A stretch of DNA of 64,000 bases, from positions 2,839-66,838 of the forward strand of contig CALXTV010000007.1 in assembly GCA_944391505.1 (NCBI GenBank), given 5' to 3'. The notes below the pieces were generated by a model. The model was given only the letters and a program-made list of their open reading frames with translations, was not told the DNA's origin and searched no databases. Shown piece after piece: positions 1-63,817 of the stretch. A program made the translations under genes and the position numbers. This DNA is from an uncultured Alphaproteobacteria bacterium. GTDB lineage: Bacteria > Pseudomonadota > Alphaproteobacteria > RF32 > CAG-239. The number at the start of each line of letters is the position of its first letter. The first letter of the stretch is position 1.

Positions 1-72
1 TTATTTCGCTCGGAAACTGTAAGCAAAGGTTGCGGATACGAACTTAATTCCATTCAGCCTTTGGTTTTTTTA

Positions 73-891
73 TCAGAAAACGTTTGCGTTTCGGATAATA
101 TCCAGAGCGATTTGTCTGGCATAGGCGCTGGCGGAATGACGATAATCTTTGATGCTGTTTTCTTTGTCATGCAGTCTTACGGCAAAGAAAATTTTATGAT
201 TGTTTCGTTCATAAAATCCGACGAACCAGGCTGTGTCAACAACATCGTCTTTTATGCCCAAACCTGTTTTGCCATATATTTTGACCGGCACATTCGTGAT
301 AAGCATCAAATCTTTCAGCGTTTCCGTCATTTGATTTTCTTCGGCAAAAAGCTGCGCCAAAAATCGGACTTGTTCCACGGGCGAAATTTGCAGAGATGAT
401 TCTATCCAAAAGCCCTTTAATTTCGCAATATTGGTATTGGTGTTTTGTTTTCCCTCCCAGTCGGAAATATCCTGATTTCCGTAATGGTATTTTTGCAGAT
501 AAGTCCGAATTTTTTCCGGAGGCACTTTGTCCGTTAATGTTCGAAAATACCACACACAAGATGTTTTGAAAGCCGTTTTAATTTCCATGTCTTGATTCCA
601 TTGCGGATTTCCGTAGTCTTTGCCGTCCCATTCAAGGGTTGAGTTTTGGGCGGTAACAATATGTTCGGCCAAAGCAAAATAGGAAGACATGATTTTAAAT
701 GTTGAACAGGGCGAAGAGCGCCGTCGGCTTAATGCCGTGTTATAAATTTTGTATTCTGAGGCTTCCGGGTCATAAAAAACGGCAGTTCCGTCAATACCTT
801 TAAAATATTTTGCGAGGTTAATTTCTTCGCTTGTTTCCCTGCTGCAGGAAAGCGTCAAAAAAACAAACAATAAAAGTTTAATCAGTTTCAT
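73..891 (-). CDS. Class D (OXA-type) beta-lactamase, lipoprotein
   Basis: The STFK active-site motif, YGN, KTG and WxxG motifs are present in class D order. The N-terminus has a lipobox (LTLSC). Confidence 0.85.
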   Translation of the reverse strand: MKLIKLLLFVFLTLSCSRETSEEINLAKYFKGIDGTAVFYDPEASEYKIYNTALSRRRSSPCSTFKIMSSYFALAEHIVTAQNSTLEWDGKDYGNPQWNQDMEIKTAFKTSCVWYFRTLTDKVPPEKIRTYLQKYHYGNQDISDWEGKQNTNTNIAKLKGFWIESSLQISPVEQVRFLAQLFAEENQMTETLKDLMLITNVPVKIYGKTGLGIKDDVVDTAWFVGFYERNNHKIFFAVRLHDKENSIKDYRHSASAYARQIALDIIRNANVF

Positions 892-3468: not shown

Positions 3469-4383
3469 ATGAATAGTCAAAATTTGATTTTAGATATTAG
3501 TGATATAATAGAGAAAAATACAAGTAATAATGCTTGTATTTTATTGGGAGATTCTCTAAAAATACTAAAATCGATTAGAGAAAAATCTATTAATTTGATT
3601 TTTGCAGATCCCCCCTATAATATAGGTAAGAATTTTGGTAATAATTTTGATAAGTGGAAAACAAAAGAAAGTTACATAAATTGGTGTAAAGAATGGATTA
3701 TTGAATGTATGCGTATCTTAAAAGATGATGGAACAATGTATTTTATGATGGCAACTCAATTTATGCCATATTTGGATGTTTTTGCATCAGAAAACTACAA
3801 CGTCTTATCAAGAATAATATGGAATTATGATAGTTCAGGAGTTCAAGCAAAAAAAATGTTTGGTTCTCTTTATGAACCTATCTTAATGATAAATAAATCT
3901 AAAAATAATCCATACACTTTTAATGCTAAGGATATACTAATTGAAGCTAAAACAGGGGCAAAACGAGGATTGATTGATTATAGAAAAAATCCACCGAAAC
4001 CATATAATACACAAAAAATTCCAGGTAATGTTTGGGATTTTTCAAGAGTCAGATTTAAAATGGATGAATATGAAAATCACCCAACCCAGAAACCAGAAAA
4101 GTTATTAGAACGTATTGTAAAAGTATCAAGTAATAGGGGAGATATTGTTTTAGATCCATTTGCTGGTAGTTTTACAACAATATCTGTTGCGAGTAAATTA
4201 GAAAGATATGGAATAGGTATAGAATTAAATCCTGAATATTATAAAATTGGTTTACGCAGACTCGGAATAACTCAAGAATTTAAGGAAAAAAAACTTTCTA
4301 AAGTAAAAAAGACCAGTAATGAATCGAAATCTCTAAGCTTTACGTATCATCAAGGAATTTTACCATTATGCGGGAATTTATAG
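3469..4383 (+). CDS. DNA methyltransferase, beta-class (motif IV DPPY precedes motif I FAGSFTT); N6-adenine or N4-cytosine
   Basis: IFADPPYN sits near the N-terminus and DPFAGSFTT near the C-terminus. GC is about 30% against about 52% for the flanks. Confidence 0.85.
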   Translation: MNSQNLILDISDIIEKNTSNNACILLGDSLKILKSIREKSINLIFADPPYNIGKNFGNNFDKWKTKESYINWCKEWIIECMRILKDDGTMYFMMATQFMPYLDVFASENYNVLSRIIWNYDSSGVQAKKMFGSLYEPILMINKSKNNPYTFNAKDILIEAKTGAKRGLIDYRKNPPKPYNTQKIPGNVWDFSRVRFKMDEYENHPTQKPEKLLERIVKVSSNRGDIVLDPFAGSFTTISVASKLERYGIGIELNPEYYKIGLRRLGITQEFKEKKLSKVKKTSNESKSLSFTYHQGILPLCGNL

Positions 4384-5429
4384 AAGAAATTCTAAAAGAA
4401 GAATATCAAAATAAATTTGAGTACATATTTAATAATAGTCCCTTATTACAATATTTGGATTGTAAAATGGGAGCTGTCTATGGAAATTCTAAAACAAGAA
4501 GAAGTTTAGCCAATATTTATGCAATCTATTCTATTTTAAATTTCTATGTTGAAGATTTTTATAACCAAAAAGAAAAATATAAATCATTTACAGGGTATCC
4601 GTATACAAAATTATTTTCGTTTTGTCGTCAGCTTTATGGGGGAGAAAAATTACAAAATCATGCTCTAAACAGTAGGGTTAATGGTGAATTTAAAAATAAA
4701 GAAAATACAAATGAGCTGATAATTATTGATAGTGGTAAATATGCTTTACATATAAATTTCTTGTATGTTGATGAAATTGATATTTCAAAAACAGCTATAA
4801 AGATTATCCAGAAATACATACAGCTTTTAATGGAGAAGGATAATGCTTTTGTTAAAGATTTAGAAGAGTTAAAGACATTAAAAACCATAAATGAAAAATT
4901 AGATAAATTAAACACTATGCTTACCGAAAAATCAGAAGCAAGAGTTTTTGAAATCATATCCTATGCAATTCTAAAGAACCACTATAAAGGAACAAAAATA
5001 TACTGGGGATATTCCCCTCAAAATTTGCAACAAGAGTTTCTTACTCTTTATAAAACGGGTAGAACTAATGCAAATGATGGCGGAATAGATTTTGTTATGA
5101 AACCATTAGGACGTTTTTTTCAAGTGACGGAAGTTATGGAAAATTATGATAAATATCTATTAGATATTGATAAGGTAATGCGATTCCCAATAACATTTGT
5201 AATAAAAACATTAAAAACAAAAGATATTGTAAAGAGTGAATTAGATAATTTTATTCAAATTAAGTCAGGAGGAATGGAGATTATTATTAATAGGTATAAA
5301 CAAGCGATAGAGGAAATTATTACTATTAATGAACTAAAAGAATGGATGTCTAATTTGTTTGATGTTGAGATTAATGCTGTAATTAATGATATTGAAATGT
5401 ATTATAAATTAGAAATGAATTTGTTATAA
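4368..5429 (+). CDS. Putative type II restriction endonuclease (partner of the methyltransferase)
   Basis: Its start overlaps the methyltransferase stop by 16 nt, indicating translational coupling. It shares the same AT-rich island and has a possible degenerate PD-(D/E)xK motif (IIDSG...FLYVDEIDISK). There is no recognisable homology beyond that. Confidence 0.4.
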   Translation: MREFIEEILKEEYQNKFEYIFNNSPLLQYLDCKMGAVYGNSKTRRSLANIYAIYSILNFYVEDFYNQKEKYKSFTGYPYTKLFSFCRQLYGGEKLQNHALNSRVNGEFKNKENTNELIIIDSGKYALHINFLYVDEIDISKTAIKIIQKYIQLLMEKDNAFVKDLEELKTLKTINEKLDKLNTMLTEKSEARVFEIISYAILKNHYKGTKIYWGYSPQNLQQEFLTLYKTGRTNANDGGIDFVMKPLGRFFQVTEVMENYDKYLLDIDKVMRFPITFVIKTLKTKDIVKSELDNFIQIKSGGMEIIINRYKQAIEEIITINELKEWMSNLFDVEINAVINDIEMYYKLEMNLL

Positions 5430-53192: not shown

Positions 53193-54428
53193 TTAATATG
53201 TCTTTTGAGACAGTAATGCTTGATTTATTGGTACATTAGATCTTGTGTTGCTGTTATTTTGTTTAACATGGGTTAGTAACGGATTAGTACCATGCCTTAA
53301 TGAAACAAGAAAATAATATTGTTGACTTTTACTCATACCTTGAAATTGTGTATGAGAAGTAGTTAAACCCTGATTTGGCAAAGGAGGCGGCATAGGATTT
53401 ACATATTCTTGAGCAACTTGTTGCCCCGTTTTGCTCAATTGTTTTGCACGTCCATAAATGCTTTCCTGTATTTTATTTAAATCAATTTTTTCAGCGGGAG
53501 TATAATTTTCATTATTTTGTAATTCTGAAATAGTTCTGTACATCCCATCAGCACCATTTTCATCATATTGTTTAATCATATTATTTCTGCGAGCTGTCAT
53601 ATTTTCACTTAGACAAGTATCAATAGGTTTATGCAGATTAGCAAAGTCTCGCCATTTTTTATCTATAATTTCTCCGTTTTCATCAAGTTCTAAAGGGATG
53701 ACTTTTTGTTGTTGCTTTTCTTGGTCGTATGCTGATATCCAAACTTTTTTAAGTTTATTCTGATGTGGAAATATTGCTGTTTCATTTTTATCATATGCTT
53801 TTTCTATATCAAACTCATCTGTAAAGTAATCATGATTAATATCGCCAAAACCTTGTCATTTTCCTTTACTTTCATACTCAAAAACGAAACCGTATATGAC
53901 CTTCCCGTCATGACAAGACAAAAACCTTGAATTATGTCCAGATCCCCGGGGTGTAACATAGTCACAGGCACCTTGCATAATTTGCTTATTTTGACCTGAT
54001 ATAGAAACATTTTCTTGTCTAGCCCCAAAAGCAGCACCATATGTATGTCCATAAACTTCATATTTAACCAATACAGCATAAGGATCACCACTAAAGCCTC
54101 CATGAAAAACAGAAGCTAACTCACCTTTGTTTTGTAATGACTCTATATTTTCTTTGTTCATTACAACAGGATCGACGCCATTTTCCATAACATTTTTTAT
54201 CATTTCATCAGCATAATCATCTAAGGATAAGTGATCTTTAAGAATTTCTTGATAGTTACTGCCATTAGCTCTGGCTATTATATTGATGTCTAAATTTCTA
54301 CCTATATCAGTAGCAGCCGGTGCAATTTCTTTACGAGTCATAGGATGGGATAAATATACTTTACCTCCTTGTTTAGATATAGCCTCAATTATTTTTATAT
54401 TTGCTTTTAATGCTTCATCCGGAGCCAT
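53193..54428 (-). pseudogene. Toxin-like 411-codon reading frame interrupted by one in-frame TGA (at 53856-53858)
   Basis: Track ORFs 53856..54428 and 53193..53600 are in the same frame. The sequence between them is open except for a single TGA (...ESKGK*QGFGD...). AT-rich island. Confidence 0.5.
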
Positions 54429-54532
54429 AAAGGGTGAATGAACACCTGTTTGGGTTACAATAAAAACATTTGGATTAGTGGCTCTTGGATCATCCTCAGT
54501 TAACCTCTCCTTTAAAGGCTTAAAACAAAGAC

Positions 54533-54934: not shown

Positions 54935-55393
54935 CTAATATTTTTTATTTGTTGATTTTTTTCTTTTAAATTCGCAACCATCTTTAGCATTTGTATATAG
55001 CCCACTTTTTGCTTGATGGCGCCCAAGCGAATTAATATATTTATCGTGTTCATAATCAGCATAAGCATCTATAGCTGATGTTCCTTTTATAATCCTATTT
55101 TTGAAATAGTCAATTCGTTCTTTAGCATCACCAATAGCTTCTGCTGTTTTCTCGCCCCATTTTCCTCTTTGGGTTGCTTCATAATTTGCTTTGCAATGAA
55201 AATAGTCATCGTTTCCAATTACATTATCTTCTTTCATATCATTATAATTTTTATACATGTCAGAAGCAGCACCAAAAATTTGAGCAAAAGGTGTTTCTAG
55301 TAAATTAGTCATTTTATTATTTCTGTTTGTTTGCTTTTTCTTCATTTGTTTTTCAGGATCTTCCTGAATGATATAACGTATAAGGTTACTCAT
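54935..55393 (-). CDS. Serum amyloid A (SAA)-like protein
   Basis: AAAGGA RBS. FGAASDMYKNYNDMKEDNVIGNDDYFHCKANYEATQRGKWGEKTAEAIGDAKERIDYF aligns with vertebrate SAA [59 protein letters not shown]. Confidence 0.75.
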   Translation of the reverse strand: MSNLIRYIIQEDPEKQMKKKQTNRNNKMTNLLETPFAQIFGAASDMYKNYNDMKEDNVIGNDDYFHCKANYEATQRGKWGEKTAEAIGDAKERIDYFKNRIIKGTSAIDAYADYEHDKYINSLGRHQAKSGLYTNAKDGCEFKRKKSTNKKY

Positions 55394-55780
55394 AATTTTT
55401 TCCTTTCATGATAATGTTTAGAGATTTAAAATAAAAAAAATCCGAAGAACTTAATCTTCAGATTTTGGATACACTTGTATCAAGTGATAATTAGTCTATA
55501 ACAAATATATATACAATTTTCAAGATATAAGTAAAATATGTCAACAACTTTTAATCTTTTTCTGTTTTACAATCCTCAAAATGATAGATATAATATTTTT
55601 GAAAATATGATTGATGATAAAAAACGTATAAACAATTAGTTATAATGAAAATATAGACTTTTTTCGGGTTCCTCGGAAAGGGTGGGGTGGCAGGATGTGT
55701 CAATACCAACCCATAAAACCTTGTTTCGTGTAAAATCAATAATTTATCTAAATATCGTCTGGGGTGTAAACCTCAAAGTT

Positions 55781-55878: not shown

Positions 55879-56063
55879 AACTTTTATTATTAGGGTGATA
55901 TGAGAGATTTTTCCTAAAAGTTGTTGATATGTTCACTTGTAACTTGAAAATTGTATTTAATTTTGCTATAAGAAAAAAGCCACTTGCTATTAGTGTATCT
56001 AAATATACAAAATATTAAGAAATCACATAGTAAGTTAATCTATTATTTTGCCGGAGAGGAAAT

Positions 56064-56321
56064 ATGAAAGAACAAATTGTAAAATTTCTGCGTTTTTTGT
56101 GTGGGTATATTATACTAAGCTCTTTGGCCTTACTTATATTTAATGGGATTTCAGGCCCTAAAAATTATGTTTTTGGCTGGCCTTCCTTTATTTATATGGT
56201 AACATATCTTATTTATCCCCTAATAAGAAAACTCGGGAACATCAATAAGAAATATAGTGTTATTTATTTTTCAGTGCTATATTTTATTTTATGTTTTTTA
56301 TATTTTATATTTATCTTCTAA
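56064..56321 (+). CDS. Small membrane protein, hypothetical
   Basis: GGAGAGGAAATATG RBS. 85 aa with 3 hydrophobic helices. Terminator at 56341-56371. Confidence 0.45.
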   Translation: MKEQIVKFLRFLCGYIILSSLALLIFNGISGPKNYVFGWPSFIYMVTYLIYPLIRKLGNINKKYSVIYFSVLYFILCFLYFIFIF

Positions 56322-56340
56322 GCATATATTTTACTAATTT

Positions 56341-56371
56341 CAGCTCTACACACAAGTGTAGAGTTTTTTTT
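56341..56371 (+). terminator. Rho-independent terminator
   Basis: ctctacacacaagtgtagag plus a T8 run. Confidence 0.8.
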
Positions 56372-56382
56372 ATTAGTTGCCT

Positions 56383-56507
56383 TACAGAAAACCCCGAGTT
56401 TACTCGGGGCTGAATGCCAAGGTGTTGGAACAACACCGCTCCATGCCAACGAGCGTGGTCAAACCGTAAGGTTTGTAGCTGTTATAGAACCCCCAGTTTA
56501 CTGGGGG
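56383..56507 (+). repeat. Structured GC-rich repeat element, copy B (homologous to 12943-13064)
   Basis: tacagaaaaccccgagtttactcggggctgaatgcc, the hairpin gtgttggaacaacac, a conserved ccaacg...gtcaaaccgtaaggtt block, and a terminal second copy of the first hairpin (cccccagtttactggggg, 56490-56507). It is GC-rich inside an AT-rich island. Confidence 0.6.
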
Positions 56508-56529
56508 ATATCTATTGAAAGGAAACCTC

Positions 56530-57264
56530 ATGGTAAATTTATCAAATATTTTATTAACAGCAGGAAAAAAAATTACTAAAGCAATTGTCAAAAAAGAAGC
56601 CAGAGAGCATAGTGATACCATTGATGAATTCTCTAACTCAACGGCATTAAATCCGTTTGACGTTAAACCATTGAATGAAGGAGAAGATGAACGTATTGAA
56701 CAGATATTAAAATCTAAGGAGACATATGAACCTTATTATAAAAAACAACTTGAAAAACTTAACCAAAAACAAAAATTAATCCAAGATATAAATCAAAACA
56801 ATAACGCAGAAGAAGATATTTTATATAAACACCCTTCACAAATTACAGAAGCTGAAATAAAAAATAGTATGATTTATTCAGGAGACAAAACGTCTGACCG
56901 AGAATTAAAAGAACAATTGCAAAAGAAACAAAAAGATTGGTTTGATTTTTATTATGGTACAGATGCAATTAAAACGGATGCAGCCGGAAAATATATATCA
57001 CCTTCAATAAAGCATTCATTACCGGATGCTCCCGTTGAGCTTACAACCAAAGAAAAACTTCCGTTGATGAACGGATTTGATAAAATAGCAGAATATACAT
57101 CTAAGAATGATGTGAAAACATTGCAAAATAGGCTTAACAATCTTTATCAGAATGATACTTCTTTGCCACAATTAAAAGAAGATGGAATTCTTGGTAAAAA
57201 AACTACATCTCGTATAAAAAAAGCCCTTGTTGAATTTGGTGTAAATAAAATTACTCAAAACTAA
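56530..57264 (+). CDS. Protein with C-terminal peptidoglycan-binding (PG_binding_1-like) domain
   Basis: AAAGGA RBS. LQNRLNNLYQNDTSLPQLKEDGILGKKTTSRIKKAL matches the PGBD pattern (LQ..L..LGY...DGifG..T..A). Charged, K/E-rich N-terminal region. Confidence 0.65.
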   Translation: MVNLSNILLTAGKKITKAIVKKEAREHSDTIDEFSNSTALNPFDVKPLNEGEDERIEQILKSKETYEPYYKKQLEKLNQKQKLIQDINQNNNAEEDILYKHPSQITEAEIKNSMIYSGDKTSDRELKEQLQKKQKDWFDFYYGTDAIKTDAAGKYISPSIKHSLPDAPVELTTKEKLPLMNGFDKIAEYTSKNDVKTLQNRLNNLYQNDTSLPQLKEDGILGKKTTSRIKKALVEFGVNKITQN

Positions 57265-57806: not shown

Positions 57807-60800
57807 ATGAAAAAATCTTTATTAATGACAACAGCATTGGTTGCACTGGTGAGTGCATCTAATGCCCGCGCTGAAGATTGGACAGTCAGTGCGCCGGAAA
57901 GTATTGAAAACCAAATCCTAAATAAAGACAATGTAACCATTCAAGCCGGAGGCGAAGTTGCAATTTCCGGAGACACGGAAAGCGGCATAATCGCCAAAAG
58001 TTTTACGATGGAAGGCGGAAAGCTGACCGCAACATCGGTTAACGGCAGCGCCGACACCGGAATTTTCGTTAAATCGGACAGTTCAGACATAAACTTGAAT
58101 GGCGGCACCATCGAGTTAACAAATTCACGCATCTACAAAGGCAATGATACAGAGACAAGCGGAGATATTAATATTTCCGGTGGAGATATTACTTTGAATA
58201 AAGATGCCTATATTGAAATGCGGAAAGAAAACAGCGGTAATGTCAATATAACCGGTGGCAACTTACTCTTAAATGAAAATTCAGCCTTGCTCATCAATAG
58301 CAACAATGACCAAGAAGTTGAGGGCAACGCCTCCAAGGTGATAATCAATGGGGAAGGGGCGCAAATTACGGCAACCGGAAACAACCGCATCACGGGAAAT
58401 ATTGATTTTACGAACGGAACCCTAACAGTCAGCGACAATGCAAGTTTGACTTCCGGTGATATAACTATGTCCGGTGAAGATGCTCAGATAGATTTGTCCG
58501 GCCAGTTGAATACAAATATTTCCGGCAATGGAAATATCACATTCCAAAATTCGTCCTCAAATATTAAAGGGAATGTCTCAGGCTCTCATTTAACCTTTGA
58601 AGCAGACCATTCTTTAAGCCAAGCTATTTCGGGCGGTATTTCTAATTTAGCCTCTTTGAGTGTTAATAAAGGAACATTGACGTATGATAAACCTTCGGAA
58701 GGTCTTTTAGGTGATGTGAAGGTTGCTCAAGGAGCGGGATTAAATGTTAATAAATTTATGCAAACCAATGATTTAACGCTTAACGGAAAAGTCAGCATCA
58801 ATGATGATGTCGCCGCACAAGGAAACATCAAAATAGCCGATGCCTCGATTGATTTGAACGGCAAGTCATTAAATGCCATAAAAGAAGGTATTACAATGAC
58901 GAGCGGAACCATCAATATGAACAATGGCTCAGGCGACCAAGATTTAACCCTTTGGGCGGCTAAAGATATTAATATCTTGGGCGGTACAATTAATATGAAT
59001 GGTCGCGAAGCATACATTGACACATTTTATGACTTGCTTAACCCTGATGACCATACACCGCTCCCAAAACCGGACACTCCTGGAAATATTAATATTTCTA
59101 ATGCGACCATTAACGTTAACAGCAATTCGGCGGAAATATCTTCCGAAGGAAAGATTAATGTTTCCGATAATGCGGTCATCAATATCGCATCTGGTGCAAA
59201 ATTATCTTCTTATGAGAGCTTTAGCATTAAAAATGCAGATTTAGTATTAGGTGATAAGGCCACTATCAATCTTACCGGTACCGGCGCAATTAATATTGCC
59301 GGTAATTTGGCGGCAAATGTTGAAGGTGATGGTAATCTGAACATTAAGTCTTCTAATGCGGTAATTGATGGTGATATCAAAGGCTCGCAATTAACCTTTG
59401 AGGCAGACCATTCTTTGAGTAAAGCTCTGTTGGGTGAGAATATTGAATTAGCCTCTTTGAACGTTAACAAAGGTACGTTGACTTTTGATAAACAACCAAC
59501 TTCAATCACCAATTTGAATGTTGCCGGAGGTTTGGACATTGGTACCAATACCGTAAAAGCTACCAATGTTTCCTTCAAAGACAACTCCACGCTTAAATTC
59601 ACGGTTGCCGGTAAAGAAGACGGAAGTTATGGTAAAATTCAAGCTAGTACGATAGATATTAGCACAACCGGTACCAAACTTGATTTAACCTTAAACAGCA
59701 GTGTTTTGGGTAAAGATGAAGCAAAAGATTTTACTATTCTTGATGGTAGTGTCAGCGGAGATTTTGCGGAGTTAAGCAAAAACAGCCGTTATGAATTTGA
59801 AAAATTAGGAAACGGTCAATATAAAATTACCGGAAAAGCCTCAGCGGCTGATATTGCGACAGAAGCCGGCGGTAATGCCAACAATGTCGGCACTGCAACG
59901 GCTTGGGATGGTGTTTCTTTAGATAACCCAAGCGGTTCAACTTCCGGACAAGTTGCCAATGCCTTGGCTGAATTGGCTGGTAAACCGGATGCCGCCTCAC
60001 AAAAGGCTTATGTAGATGCTTTGACCGCGGTTGCTCCTGAGGTTGCGCCAATGGTTCAACATACACAAACCGAAACCGCAAACCAAGTCTTTGGCGCTGT
60101 CGGTACACGTTTAACCGGTGGTTCTGTTTCTACCGGTGGTGAAGGTATGTCTTCCGGTGATAATATCTTTGAGCGTGCCGCAATGTGGGTTCAAGGCTTG
60201 TTTAATAAATCTAAACTTGATGACACTTCAAAATCTTATGGCTTTGATGCAGATTCAAACGGTATCGCCATGGGTGCTGAAAAATATGTAACGGAAGACA
60301 CCAAAGTCGGTTTAGGTTATGCTTATACCAACACCGATATTGACGGCTTCAAAAGAGATACTGATGTCGATACACATACCGCCTTTGTTTATGGCGAATA
60401 TAAGCCGAGTAATTGGTATGTTAACGGTATCGCCTCATACGGCTGGTCAGATTATGACGAAAGCAAGAATGTTGCCGGAGTTAATGTTAAGTCTGACTAT
60501 GATGCCGAAACCTTTGGTTTGCAAGCTATGGCCGGTTATGACATGCAAATGAAACACTTCGGTTTAACTCCTGAAGTTGGTTTGCGCTATGTTCACATTA
60601 GCCAAGACAGCTATAAAGATTCTGCCGACCAAAGAGTATCTGCAAATGATAGCGATATCTTAACCGGTGTTATCGGTGCTAAAGTCAGCAAAACTTGGAC
60701 GCTTGAAAACGGTATGAACATTAAACCGGAAGCACGCATTGCCGCAACTTATGACCTGATGAACGATGACACAAACTCTGTCGTAACTTTGGCCAATGGT

Positions 60801-61357: not shown

Positions 61358-61849
61358 CTAATGAGTCAAATCGGCTTTGTCATCACATTCAATTCTTGCT
61401 TGATGGAGATATTCTTTTACTGTATTTTGAATCCAATATGTCGCCTTCCCAATTGCTATGGTGTTATACATATTTCCTCCGCGCACAGATGCAAAATCGC
61501 TATATTGTATCATATCATGAGCACAGGCATAATAGGCTGTAACCAGTGTATCAAAATTCTTTTTGACCTCAGCATTGTATTTTTTATAATTTCTGTCAAA
61601 AAGTTTATGGGCAACAGCAATAGAACAATCACCAAAATCATAAGCCGCATTATTCATATCTGCAGTTGAGGGAGCATCGGCCATTTGAATTTTGCAATTC
61701 GCCAATTCTTCTTCCAAACTACGAAGAAATGCATCTTCTTCACCTGAACATTTTTCTTGTTTGTCAGTGTAGGTTGATACTTTTTCTTCTGCTGCGGAAG
61801 CTTGTATAGATAATGCCAATGCCATTATTAATAATAAAATAAATCTCAT
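61358..61849 (-). CDS. Secreted Cys-containing protein (possibly DUF1311/LprI-like)
   Basis: Signal peptide MRFILLLIMALALSIQASA and 6 Cys. It is the last gene of the minus-strand island operon. Confidence 0.55.
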   Translation of the reverse strand: MRFILLLIMALALSIQASAAEEKVSTYTDKQEKCSGEEDAFLRSLEEELANCKIQMADAPSTADMNNAAYDFGDCSIAVAHKLFDRNYKKYNAEVKKNFDTLVTAYYACAHDMIQYSDFASVRGGNMYNTIAIGKATYWIQNTVKEYLHQARIECDDKADLTH

Positions 61850-61853
61850 CCCG

Positions 61854-62366
61854 CTATTCCTTATGAGTTTGAAGAGGCTTTACTTCCATCTTCTTAAAGG
61901 CAACAATCATTAAAACACCATAAATAATTAATGGTAAGAAAAAGAATATTGCTCCAAGAATGGCATTCCCCAGACTGCCAAGTGTTAAGATAATATTTTT
62001 TTGTTTAAACAAAAAATACAAATAAACAAATATATATAATAACCATTCAGGAATTATTACTTGCCAAGATAAGGCTTTGTATAAATAATTTTTTCCATAA
62101 ATTTTCAGCCCTGTGTAGAGGGGAAAGGCTTGAAAATAAAAACAAATGATTGTAAATGTTTCATAACGACATGGGGCTTGTTCATCTTTTCTAAACCAAT
62201 GAAAATAGTTATTCCAACCAAATTCCAGATAATTTTGAATTTGAGCCCCAAAAGCAGGAGTAATACAGATTTCGCCACTTTGATGGTCATTCGTCATCAT
62301 TGTTCCCCATAATAGAGACAAAACAATAATCAGTAGCTCTAGTATAATGTATTTTACTATTTTCAT
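61854..62366 (-). CDS. Membrane protein, paralog 2 of tandem pair (immunity-protein-like)
   Basis: Shares GWNNYF(H/Q)WF, a PC(R) motif and TM topology with 62379..62885. About 4-5 TM helices. Confidence 0.6.
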   Translation of the reverse strand: MKIVKYIILELLIIVLSLLWGTMMTNDHQSGEICITPAFGAQIQNYLEFGWNNYFHWFRKDEQAPCRYETFTIICFYFQAFPLYTGLKIYGKNYLYKALSWQVIIPEWLLYIFVYLYFLFKQKNIILTLGSLGNAILGAIFFFLPLIIYGVLMIVAFKKMEVKPLQTHKE

Positions 62367-62378
62367 AGGTTTCTCTTT

Positions 62379-62885
62379 TTACTTGCTTTTTATTTTCATT
62401 ATATGCATGTTGCACCCAGATATTATAAATACAGAACACAGAATAAAAGGAACAAATAGTAGCAATATTCCGATTAAAGCATTTATGAAACTATAACTTG
62501 TTAACACTAGACCTGGCTGCAAAAATAACCATATCATAAATAGAGCAATGTAAAATATATATTCTGAAATAACAAATTTATATTTAAGCGTTATTGAAAG
62601 CTTAAACATTCCATACACCTTTAACAAAGCATATGCAGGAAAACAACTTAAAAAATATAAGCACCATGCTGCAAAAGTTATACGGCATGGCATTTGTTCT
62701 ATATTTGAAAACCATTGAAAATAGTTATTCCAGCCTAATGCCAGATAGTTACCAATATTTATTCCATAATTTGCTGTTAGGCATGTTTCTCCAGGTTTGA
62801 GCATTGAGATAAAAAATAAATCTCCCCAAAACCAAGCGGCGATAATAAATATTAGTTCCAGAATGACATAAAATAAAATTTTCAT
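62379..62885 (-). CDS. Membrane protein, paralog 1 of tandem pair (immunity-protein-like)
   Basis: Paralogous to 61854..62366. Its start overlaps the stop of the upstream SLT-like gene by 1 nt. Confidence 0.6.
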   Translation of the reverse strand: MKILFYVILELIFIIAAWFWGDLFFISMLKPGETCLTANYGINIGNYLALGWNNYFQWFSNIEQMPCRITFAAWCLYFLSCFPAYALLKVYGMFKLSITLKYKFVISEYIFYIALFMIWLFLQPGLVLTSYSFINALIGILLLFVPFILCSVFIISGCNMHIMKIKSK

Positions 62886-63817
62886 TATTTTCCTTTTTTT
62901 GATTTAAATTTTGGCATTTCCAATGGGTTATTCCAAGTTTTATTTTTATAATATTCTTTGGCCCGAGCACCATAATCATTTACTTCTTTTAATCCTGTAC
63001 CATTCCATAAAGTAGCAATTTTGGCAATATCTTTATCCGGAACAGCATCATATATGGATTTAAGAACCCTTACGCCGAGTTCTATGTTTTGCTCAGGATC
63101 ATTAACATCATATTGTTTTCCTTGAAAGTTACCCCACGTCTTTCCTTGAATATTCATAGGAAGGGTACTTTCAGAAATTTTTATAATATCAGCCAATTTG
63201 TTGTATCCATATTTATGATAATCAGAATTTTCTGAATATATTATAGCTTTTGTTATATTAGGGTCAAGCCCATATCGTTGAGAATATTTTTCTATTTGTT
63301 TGCTATATTTATCTACATAATCTCTTCCCCAGTTGTGTAAATGTTCAGGTAATAAGTCTGGTTTGGCATTAGGATTATCGGCAATATTAATATATATTTT
63401 TTTGCCTGATTTAAGAGCATCTATTCTGTCTTTAGCACTCATTCCATTTCCATTTATTGATATTTGTGGATTTTTTATTTCTTGTTTTATGTCAATTTTG
63501 GGAGAGCTTTTAGCCCATGGAGTTTGATTTTCTGTTTTGTCAGATATTTTTAAATCTTGAGATTTTATATTTGAAGAAGATTTTTCATCAGATTTAATAT
63601 TGTTAAAGATATTAGAAATTCCACTCATAAAAGAACCATCATCTTTACTTTGTGAAGATTTGTTTGCTGTTAATGAATTAAAGCTGTTTTCCAACAAATT
63701 TTTAGAGCTGAATTTATAGCCTTTGTATTTGTCTTCTTGAGATTGTTTTTGAATAGGATAATTAAAAAAATATATTTTTTGAAAAATAGACAAAATAATG
63801 CTTGCATAGCATGTCAA
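62885..63817 (-). CDS. Lytic transglycosylase (SLT-domain)-like protein with low-complexity S/K/N-rich N-terminal region
   Basis: IIYSENSDYH (ES catalytic-type motif), NDPEQNIELGVRVL (compare MltE NPERNISMGAAYL), and LWNGTG (compare SYANGAG). The start is uncertain. Confidence 0.55.
   Translation of the reverse strand: MTCYASIILSIFQKIYFFNYPIQKQSQEDKYKGYKFSSKNLLENSFNSLTANKSSQSKDDGSFMSGISNIFNNIKSDEKSSSNIKSQDLKISDKTENQTPWAKSSPKIDIKQEIKNPQISINGNGMSAKDRIDALKSGKKIYINIADNPNAKPDLLPEHLHNWGRDYVDKYSKQIEKYSQRYGLDPNITKAIIYSENSDYHKYGYNKLADIIKISESTLPMNIQGKTWGNFQGKQYDVNDPEQNIELGVRVLKSIYDAVPDKDIAKIATLWNGTGLKEVNDYGARAKEYYKNKTWNNPLEMPKFKSKKGK

Follow-up and report, generated by a model that had tools for sequence, protein, structure and literature searches.

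The window analysed here is a 64,000-nucleotide (nt) stretch of contig CALXTV010000007.1 (assembly GCA_944391505.1) from an uncultured Alphaproteobacteria bacterium, and it contains an open reading frame (ORF) for a protein of 152 amino acids (aa) that resembles serum amyloid A (SAA), followed on the same strand by a gene for a 132-aa membrane protein with conserved cysteines (coordinates in Table 1). We consider it likely that these genes encode a stand-alone toxin of the prok-SAA type and its cognate immunity protein, and that they make up a single cassette in an array of polymorphic effectors carried in an island of an uncultured human-gut alphaproteobacterium. Under the name prok-SAA, bacterial homologues of SAA have been placed in the SAW clade of the Lipocone superfamily, predicted to act on phosphate-linked lipid head groups and found recruited as tips of polymorphic toxins; they are regarded as ancestral to animal SAA, with a proposed transfer from bacteria to early metazoa (Burroughs, Nicastro and Aravind, eLife 2025, PMC12419801). 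An article by Zamocky and Ferianc (2023) is cited there for bacterial SAA homologues. What is new at the locus studied here is the lineage-specific leader and control module, together with the testability of the pair, and not the existence of a bacterial SAA.

Match, fold and predicted active site of the SAA-like protein

The SAA-like ORF starts with ATG, and an AAGGA-type ribosome-binding site is located ~8 nt 5' of it. When the protein was compared with Pfam, the SAA family (PF00277) was matched with 71.4 bits and an E-value of 9.5e-20, well above the curated gathering cut-off of 30.8 bits, and the match covered residues 37-131 of the protein and positions 5-91 of the 102 in the profile. In agreement, human SAA1 (4ip8/4ip9) was found with an E-value of 1.7e-14 when PDB sequences were searched with phmmer. 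An earlier note on this DNA, made from the letters alone, had put the likeness to vertebrate SAA at about 45% over 60 residues; our count over the aligned positions 37-97 bore this out, with 30 identities in 61 (~49%) to human SAA1, and across the whole domain the identity was ~36% (35.6%). The objection that such similarity might be confined to low-complexity segments was ruled out, as the matched segment was the conserved D-x-YFH-x-x-x-NY-x-A-x-RG core, with no low complexity, and a profile built from 25 homologues carried the SAA alignment on into the D-xxx-N-xx-GR helix.

The four-helix fold that the note had expected was also recovered by structure prediction. The AlphaFold2 model had a mean predicted local distance difference test score (pLDDT) of 81.9, most of residues 32-152 exceeding 90 and residues 1-31 being of low confidence, and it placed helices at residues 35-56, 62-74, 78-102 and 107-130, plus a short one at 136-139, i.e., a predicted four-helix core with a short fifth helix. 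When this model was used in a Foldseek search of the PDB, SAA1 and SAA3 were the sole significant matches (template modelling score normalised to the target of 0.80-0.85, root-mean-square deviation of 2.2-3.0 Å), and the solved structures matched included retinol-bound SAA3. A 'broken-hairpin' C-terminal domain was considered as well and is unlikely: the ~27-residue C-terminus aligned with the SAA tail that ends in Tyr. The first 34 residues were polar or charged and contained no hydrophobic signal sequence, and so no signal peptide was found. The ratio of nonsynonymous to synonymous substitution rates (dN/dS) against orthologues was 0.04-0.33, indicating purifying selection.

The active-site scheme proposed for these proteins comprises a His in helix 2, a Glu in helix 3 and an acidic residue where that helix ends, an Asp in helix 4, and the motif sNxxGR, where s is a small residue (PMC12419801). 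All conservation figures given here come from an alignment of 74 bacterial SAA domains and human SAA1. H66 in helix 2 and D117 in helix 4 were kept in 100% of the bacterial domains and E92 in helix 3 in 99% of them, while D95, the acidic residue at that helix's end, was kept in 84%. Helix 4 also carried the signature I120-N121-S122-L123-G124-R125, in which the Asn, Gly and Arg were kept in 99, 99 and 92%, respectively. The whole set of positions kept in 92-100% of the bacterial domains consisted of N49, Y50, M53, D62, Y64, F65, H66, C67, K68, A69, N70, E72, A73, G77, G80, A84, E92, D117, N121, G124, R125, C140, and the C-terminal Y152. Human SAA1 retained all the active-site and NxxGR positions. 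As judged from this alignment, the predicted catalytic set of the SAA-like protein is intact. Collectively, the Pfam match places the protein in the SAA family, and the modelled fold, the aligned active-site positions and the NxxGR motif would place it in the prok-SAA/SAW clade.

The alignment also contained two cysteine pairs. C67 and C140 were invariant in the bacterial domains and absent from human SAA1, whereas both C71 and C136 were present in 30 sequences and neither of them in 43, with one sequence having C136 alone. The spacing was i/i+4 both on helix 2 and on the short C-terminal helix, which fits an arrangement where two disulfides would staple helix 2 to the C-terminal segment, with one such disulfide in the window protein. 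These predicted disulfides suggest a site of action outside the cytoplasm.

The bacterial family was larger than the earlier note had assumed when it called such homologues rare: a scan of one genome per species in GTDB gave 126 prok-SAA loci, and a profile search of 1.84 billion representatives gave 1,230 clusters at 50% identity. The family had been called uncharacterised too, which holds for experiments but no longer for computation, given its description as prok-SAA (PMC12419801). The architectures and neighbourhoods were read for the best 80 of the 126 GTDB loci, and three layouts were found. In the first one, SAA formed the C-terminal end of proteins with RHS repeats, ~300 to 1,700 aa long, from Beta- and Gammaproteobacteria, one cyanobacterium, and others, and this tip came directly after a DPxGL-type RHS boundary in L039, L045, L053, L056, L058, L065, L070, L072, L073, L076 and L079. 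In the second, an N-terminal PG_binding_1 domain preceded SAA, in Micavibrio and other Alphaproteobacteria, and the same layout was observed in P0005, P0006 and P0008. The third was a short stand-alone SAA protein from gut and rumen Alphaproteobacteria, and the window ORF belongs here; identical or near-identical copies of it were found in human-gut metagenome contigs and in metagenome-assembled genomes (MAGs) labelled uncultured Alphaproteobacteria. Compared with the published prok-SAA proteins (PMC12419801), the window protein is alike in its SAA match, its modelled four-helix core with a fifth helix, the His/Glu/Asp and NxxGR residues, its soluble nature, the use of the domain as a toxin tip, and a type iii partner. 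It is unlike them in being a minimal stand-alone form, free of RHS, PAAR, metallopeptidase/vWD or 'broken-hairpin' contexts, in having a lineage-specific leader and an NLLE box, and in the extra partial Cys domain of its immunity protein.

The possibility of transfer from an animal host had also been raised by the note. However, human SAA1 showed 52% identity to a homologue from free-living Hyphococcus and 51% to an RHS-tip form vs 35.6% to the window protein, and in a neighbour-joining tree with one animal sequence and no bootstrap, it nested among environmental bacterial forms, with the gut-alphaproteobacterial proteins in a separate clade (most of the human sequence used, through ...NEWGRS, was confirmed by alignments). 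The closer relationship of human SAA1 to environmental forms argues against a capture from an animal host, and we rejected an animal-to-bacterium transfer on the basis of the identity ranking and the tree; the proposed passage from bacteria to early metazoa agrees with this placement, as far as these sequences go. With vertebrate SAA1 and SAA3 (4ip8, 4ip9, 4q5g), the window protein shares the fold, the His, the Glu, the Asp-xxx-Asn-xx-Gly-Arg segment, and the C-terminal Tyr. In contrast, it lacks a signal peptide and an RSFFSF-type N-terminus, has Cys67/Cys140 and an adjoining immunity-type gene, comes from an alphaproteobacterial MAG, and is not an acute-phase apolipoprotein of the animal lineage.

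Candidate immunity gene, shared leader and 5' module

Both the location in an island and the Cys-rich membrane protein 3' of the SAA gene, already noticed in the first reading of this DNA, were found again here, and the island is of low GC content. The start codon of the 132-aa gene lies 3 nt past the toxin stop codon. The best AlphaFold2 model of its product was confident at 81.5, the remaining four of five being at 53-65, and it contained a membrane helix at residues 2-26, a helix at 30-38, and strands at 42-44, 49-51, 56-58 and 62-65; no fold neighbour of this model was found in the PDB. In the alignment of homologues, C36, C50, C54 and C63 were invariant, and the Cys domain was repeated in part at residues 86-129. 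The motif of the window protein is C-V-D-N-G-Q-V-W-D-x5-C, and the family form is C-L-D-x-G-G-x-W-D-x5-C. A strict version of it, C-[LIV]-D-x4-[WY]-[DN]-x5-C, was found in 58 ORFs of the 80 GTDB loci, all of them directly after the SAA gene or overlapping its 3' end and mostly, where this could be scored, with a preceding hydrophobic helix, and it was absent from the ~9,200 other ORFs of those loci. The loci with such an ORF came from several phyla and included giant RHS toxins with an SAA tip; the RHS-linked forms of the Cys protein had two cysteines only. One of the immunity families described for the Lipocone superfamily, type iii, is membrane-anchored, with a helix, four strands and four conserved cysteines, and is 'coupled to Min-Wnt and prok-SAA' (PMC12419801). 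By its predicted structure and its conserved residues, the 132-aa protein fits this type, and we infer that it acts as the cognate immunity protein. Its gene is under purifying selection as well (dN/dS 0.11-0.31 vs orthologues). PHROGs and NCBIfam gave zero matches for either the toxin or the candidate immunity protein, and NCBIfam gave none for the neighbours. In locus L014 (8368-9209), tandem immunity paralogues of 142 and 137 aa were observed after one SAA gene. Locus L024 (8672-9873) had two toxins with a common 120-aa N-terminal region, one with a normal SAA-like domain and the other with a highly diverged one, and small Cys-containing membrane proteins followed both.

The earlier note had counted a third, toxin-like gene in the same operon. 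The ORFs of 190 and 135 aa found at 53193-54509, however, turned out to be a single reading frame split by a stop codon, the remains of a 530-aa ORF whose first 92 codons are gone and that has an in-frame stop after ...EYESKGK. The 530-aa form is intact in sister strain L003, and a third strain has internal deletions, so that three strains showed three states of this gene. The intact protein had no match in Pfam or NCBIfam. We therefore rejected the third gene as a toxin, and since it is decayed, the operon has two genes and not three, with the SAA-like protein itself as the predicted toxin.

The N-terminus of the SAA-like protein was shared with other effectors. Its leader follows the consensus MSNLI[RQ]YIIQ[ED]DPE, which is succeeded by a polar linker with an [N/H]LLE box, and the C-terminal modules differ between genes. 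Behind this leader we found a lytic transglycosylase (SLT), a VgrG3-like_C/GH46 module (99.5 bits), a GH108 module (40 bits), and a phage-lysozyme-like module below threshold, as well as two modules of no known family and a second, divergent SAA type. Counted by module, there were at least seven: an SAA lipocone, peptidoglycan hydrolases of four types, and two further ones. Candidate immunity genes would follow each of them, although a partner gene was well supported for SAA only. The window contains an SLT effector gene whose 5' end, including the MSNLI leader, has been lost; in other strains, full-length SLT effectors have 317-322 aa, those of L093, L095 and L105 being leader-bearing where checked, and 322-aa SLT genes were found in L112, L114 and L115. 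Varied C-terminal modules on a conserved N-terminus and a candidate immunity gene adjoining on the 3' side were both observed, and loci for polymorphic toxins characteristically show such a conserved head with interchangeable modules and a displaced copy that is truncated. When the leader profile was run against a set of 5.8 billion proteins, only short leader fragments were returned, and the search of 2.9 million viral contigs for the leader gave 0 matches. When the Lipocone paper (PMC12419801) was searched by term, neither the leader nor the NLLE box was found mentioned. A leader common to at least four types of wall-hydrolase effector and two other modules in human-gut Alphaproteobacteria appears to be unreported. 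Numerous ORFs of 29-77 aa consisted of the leader only (P0042-P0064; L011 8001-8051 and 5118-5252), and these appear to be what is left of effector genes after a frameshift or recombination. Besides, a glycine-rich segment, G..SGTE..LNG.TLGGY...LG..R......AD..G.G, was common to some leader-bearing effectors with no assigned function and a 462-aa prophage protein adjoining a small terminase gene (L089 6161-7126, L011 9631-10194, L012 4750-6138), and it had no family assignment.

A conserved module of ~130 nt was found 5' of the toxin gene. It combines an operator-like box and a promoter-like element with two hairpins, a small one and one of terminator type that has a U-run. The nhmmer search found 51 copies of it in the fetched loci, nearly all directly 5' of leader-bearing effector genes, and the pairing of the terminator stem was retained via compensatory changes. 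Rfam gave no match in the window, this module included. A LexA box, of either the alphaproteobacterial or the E. coli type, was looked for by eye and was unconvincing. The module might act as a leader under antitermination control, or be a small RNA, and such a conserved promoter-terminator unit before leader-bearing genes also appears to be unreported. A partial inverted copy, with the promoter part only and no terminator, precedes the divergent gene for an 85-aa protein and, beyond it, the one for a 249-aa protein. Taken as a unit, the leader, the NLLE box and the 5' module may represent an undescribed delivery and control system of human-gut Alphaproteobacteria, with a cassette head, at least seven interchangeable effector modules, a new export route or tiny colicin-M/pesticin-like bacteriocins with an import box, and switching by antitermination; we offer this as a tentative proposal that is possible rather than probable.

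Possible action and delivery of the toxin

In the mechanism we propose, expression would be gated, with read-through of the 5' leader terminator being needed before the toxin is made. The toxin would then be released by the producer and enter the periplasm of a competitor, with the leader peptide as the best candidate for a trafficking signal in either export or import. There, it would cleave a membrane lipid so as to release the phosphate-linked head group, and the likeliest targets would be undecaprenyl-pyrophosphate wall intermediates (lipid II), a choice that is based on the analogy with TelC, colicin M and YfiM. Wall synthesis would halt, and the target cell would lyse, while the producer would be protected by the periplasmic domain of the immunity protein binding the toxin on the periplasmic side of the inner membrane. 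Several modules that share the leader attack peptidoglycan, and some SAA homologues are fused to PG_binding_1; these associations support a wall-related target for the SAA domain. Enzymatic precedents come from other families of the superfamily: TelC cleaves lipid II, and PTDSS is a further case (PMC12419801). In addition, YfiM was recently demonstrated to be a pyrophosphatase of lipid-linked oligosaccharides, and its overexpression leads to osmotic lysis. The TelC-TipC pair of Streptococcus intermedius, assigned to the same superfamily in that work, is alike in having a toxin active only outside the cytoplasm and an immunity protein on the external side of the membrane. In contrast, TelC has an LXG domain, a type VII secretion system, and a Gram-positive host, TipC is a lipoprotein of unrelated fold, and no sequence similarity was detected between the window toxin and TelC.

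Some of the observations weigh against a toxin-immunity cassette. With Pfam, neither a secretion system nor a trafficking domain was found in the island or in over 25 related neighbourhoods: for the island, the most recurrent neighbours of leader genes, and L007, L011 and L110, there were no genes for type I, type IV or type VI secretion systems or phage tails, and the matches obtained there were an integrase, DUF3631, DUF3768, WG repeats, KAP NTPase, DUF4143, DUF6119, autotransporters, and housekeeping genes. The trafficking part of a polymorphic toxin was hence not found here, and RHS repeats are present in other members of the family. About one quarter of the SAA loci had no Cys-motif ORF, and the 'small' position of sNxxGR is Ile in the window protein, Ala being the commonest residue there (58%). 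Vertebrate SAA, whose documented activities are the non-enzymatic binding of high-density lipoprotein and retinol, has the same residues, and so their conservation is no proof of catalysis. The toxicity of prok-SAA, its substrate, and its immunity are all predicted.

Colicin M cleaves lipid II and pesticin is a muramidase, and both are diffusible bacteriocins of Enterobacteriaceae. A bacteriocin of this type would be another way to account for the delivery step, and only for that step, so that it is compatible with a toxin and its immunity protein: the leader, with its strand-prone NLIRYIIQ, and the NLLE box would be Ton/Tol-like import boxes that take the enzyme over the outer membrane of the target, and the toxin would not be injected by a contact-dependent machine but set free when part of the population lyses, or through the 85-aa holin-like protein. 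By analogy with colicin M-Cmi and pesticin-Pim, the window pair would combine a short N-terminal box, an unstructured, flexible linker, an enzyme acting in the periplasm, and immunity anchored in the inner membrane, with no signal peptide on the toxin. The low model confidence of residues 1-31 is consistent with disorder, two short conserved motifs lie inside an otherwise variable polar linker, the cassette occupies differing chromosomal sites in different strains, secretion genes were not found nearby, and the promoter followed by the leader terminator suggests tight gating of expression. However, the window toxin differs from these bacteriocins in fold, no domain for receptor binding was recognised, and 152 aa is far below the size of any known colicin-like toxin; moreover, the leader differs from the usual acidic-Thr TonB-box consensus, and the 85-aa protein, the putative lysis gene product, is limited to close relatives. 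The likeness is one of analogy and not of membership, and we regard this way of delivery, attractive as it is beside contact-dependent injection, as rather unlikely.

The SAA enzyme and the membrane protein might also be left over from a prophage, as a lysis-type or virion-associated pair similar to an endolysin or ejection lysin with a holin or regulator. The SAA/Cys pair was indeed located between or beside the large-terminase and portal genes of prophages in L012 (6607-10825), L018 (7758-10321) and L020, the sister effectors of lysozyme and SLT types are typical of phage lysins, the layout of the promoter and leader terminator is like a late-gene control region of phages, and integrase and DUF3631/DUF3768 genes are frequent neighbours. 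Nevertheless, the Cys-motif protein that follows chromosomal RHS-SAA tips in several phyla is a classical toxin-immunity arrangement, and the differing effector-immunity cassettes side by side fit an arsenal better than a single lysis cassette. In addition, only 3 of the 2.9 million viral contigs had an SAA relative, none of them leader-bearing, PHROGs matched neither protein, and the window island had no phage structural genes. A phage lysis function is accordingly improbable. The hosts of L012, L018 and L020 are animal-gut Alphaproteobacteria (e.g., from roe-deer colon), and further toxin-like genes found there share lineage-specific N-termini.

Still less probable, to the point where we set it aside, is a non-enzymatic protein that mimics the host by binding lipid, retinol or a host factor, whether captured from an animal or convergent, as the gut-resident source organism, the SAA fold with retinol-bound SAA3 among the best structural matches, and the binding activities documented for animal SAA are countered by the higher identity of human SAA1 to free-living bacterial homologues (52% vs 35.6%), the lack of a signal peptide, the coupling to an immunity-type gene, a leader common to peptidoglycan hydrolases, the use of the same domain as an RHS toxin tip, and the predicted, bacteria-specific disulfide pairs absent in animal SAA.

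If the pair is a toxin with its antidote, the locus bears on a long-standing question in human biology, the role of serum amyloid A. The Lipocone proposal holds that toxins of bacteria gave rise to animal SAA, which may have kept an enzymatic activity on lipid head groups (PMC12419801). With a 152-aa toxin, a 132-aa antidote, and no large carrier protein, this locus would be about the simplest test case, and results obtained with it would be transferable to human SAA because the same residues are kept. The leader and the 5' module, in turn, point to an unstudied weapon system in a poorly known group of gut Alphaproteobacteria.

The surrounding island

The window backbone has a guanine-plus-cytosine (GC) content of ~48% and carries housekeeping genes, namely those for GluRS, MdoG, a DsbD-like protein, and a BcrAD/DUF2229 activase of 1,416 aa. 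From ~52.8 kb to the window end, the GC content was ~30-40%, with minima of ~30% at 53-57 kb and 61-64 kb. In a sister contig, the island runs past the point where the window ends and contains DUF3631, a second effector, DUF6119, an AAA_14/DUF4143 ATPase, and a KAP NTPase, a content that marks it as an island of conflict genes. The features of the window are listed in Table 1.

Table 1. Features located in the 64,000-nt window, with strand and supporting evidence.
Feature	Position	Strand	Evidence or remarks
prok-SAA (Lipocone) predicted toxin gene, 152 aa	54935..55393	-	Pfam, PDB matches, AlphaFold2/Foldseek, conservation, dN/dS
Leader MSNLIRYIIQEDPE, residues 1-14	55352-55393	-	
NLLE box, residues 30-33	55295-55306	-	
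SAA domain, residues ~35-152		-	H66, E92, D95, D117, N121, G124, R125, C67/C140, C-terminal Y152
Candidate immunity gene, 132 aa	54533..54931	-	AlphaFold2, alignment, motif co-location, immunity type iii
Pseudogene of 530-aa ORF	53193..54509	-	tblastn/blastn vs L003, L002; translation
Conserved 5' module, ~130 nt	55430..55558	-	Alignment, nhmmer, promoter/terminator scan
Promoter-like TTGACA-17-GAAAAT	55516-55544	-	
Terminator-type hairpin, U-run	55437-55466	-	44 nt before ATG
Partial inverted 5' module, promoter part only	55912-56003	+	Inverted repeat, nhmmer
Divergent 85-aa protein	56064-56321	+	Three hydrophobic segments, holin-like size and shape
249-aa protein	56515-57264	+	C-terminal PG_binding_1, 23.2 bits, at threshold; weak PHROG matches
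Autotransporter, 1,064 aa	57777-60971	+	In island, ~41% GC
163-aa protein	61358-61849	-	Signal-peptide-like N-terminus; ORF list
Multi-pass membrane protein	61854-62366	-	Paralogue of the gene at 62379-62885
Multi-pass membrane protein	62379-62885	-	Directly 3' of SLT effector
SLT effector, 5'-truncated, MSNLI leader lost	62885..63817	-	Pfam SLT, 25.8 bits; upstream translation
Low-GC patch, ~28%	3469-5429	+	N6/N4 DNA methylase and adjoining 353-aa ORF with no family matches

The two membrane proteins encoded after the SLT effector have 168 and 170 aa and are 41% identical, and this pair always accompanied the SLT effector in L093, L105 and L110-L115; they are candidate SLT immunity genes. None of the three genes 3' of the SLT effector (61358..62885) had a family match. 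The divergent genes for the 85-aa and 249-aa proteins (55912..57264, with the inverted module) were found in close relatives only, and their membership in the system is putative. In L024, a similar pair, an 'LNEGEDE' protein and a small membrane protein, was observed 5' of the SAA gene. The patch at the beginning of the window, which encodes the DNA methylase, is probably a restriction-modification island. The autotransporter gene, which is missing from the same position in L002, is duplicated internally, the two copies (58163-58692 vs 58964-59493) being 801 nt apart in period.

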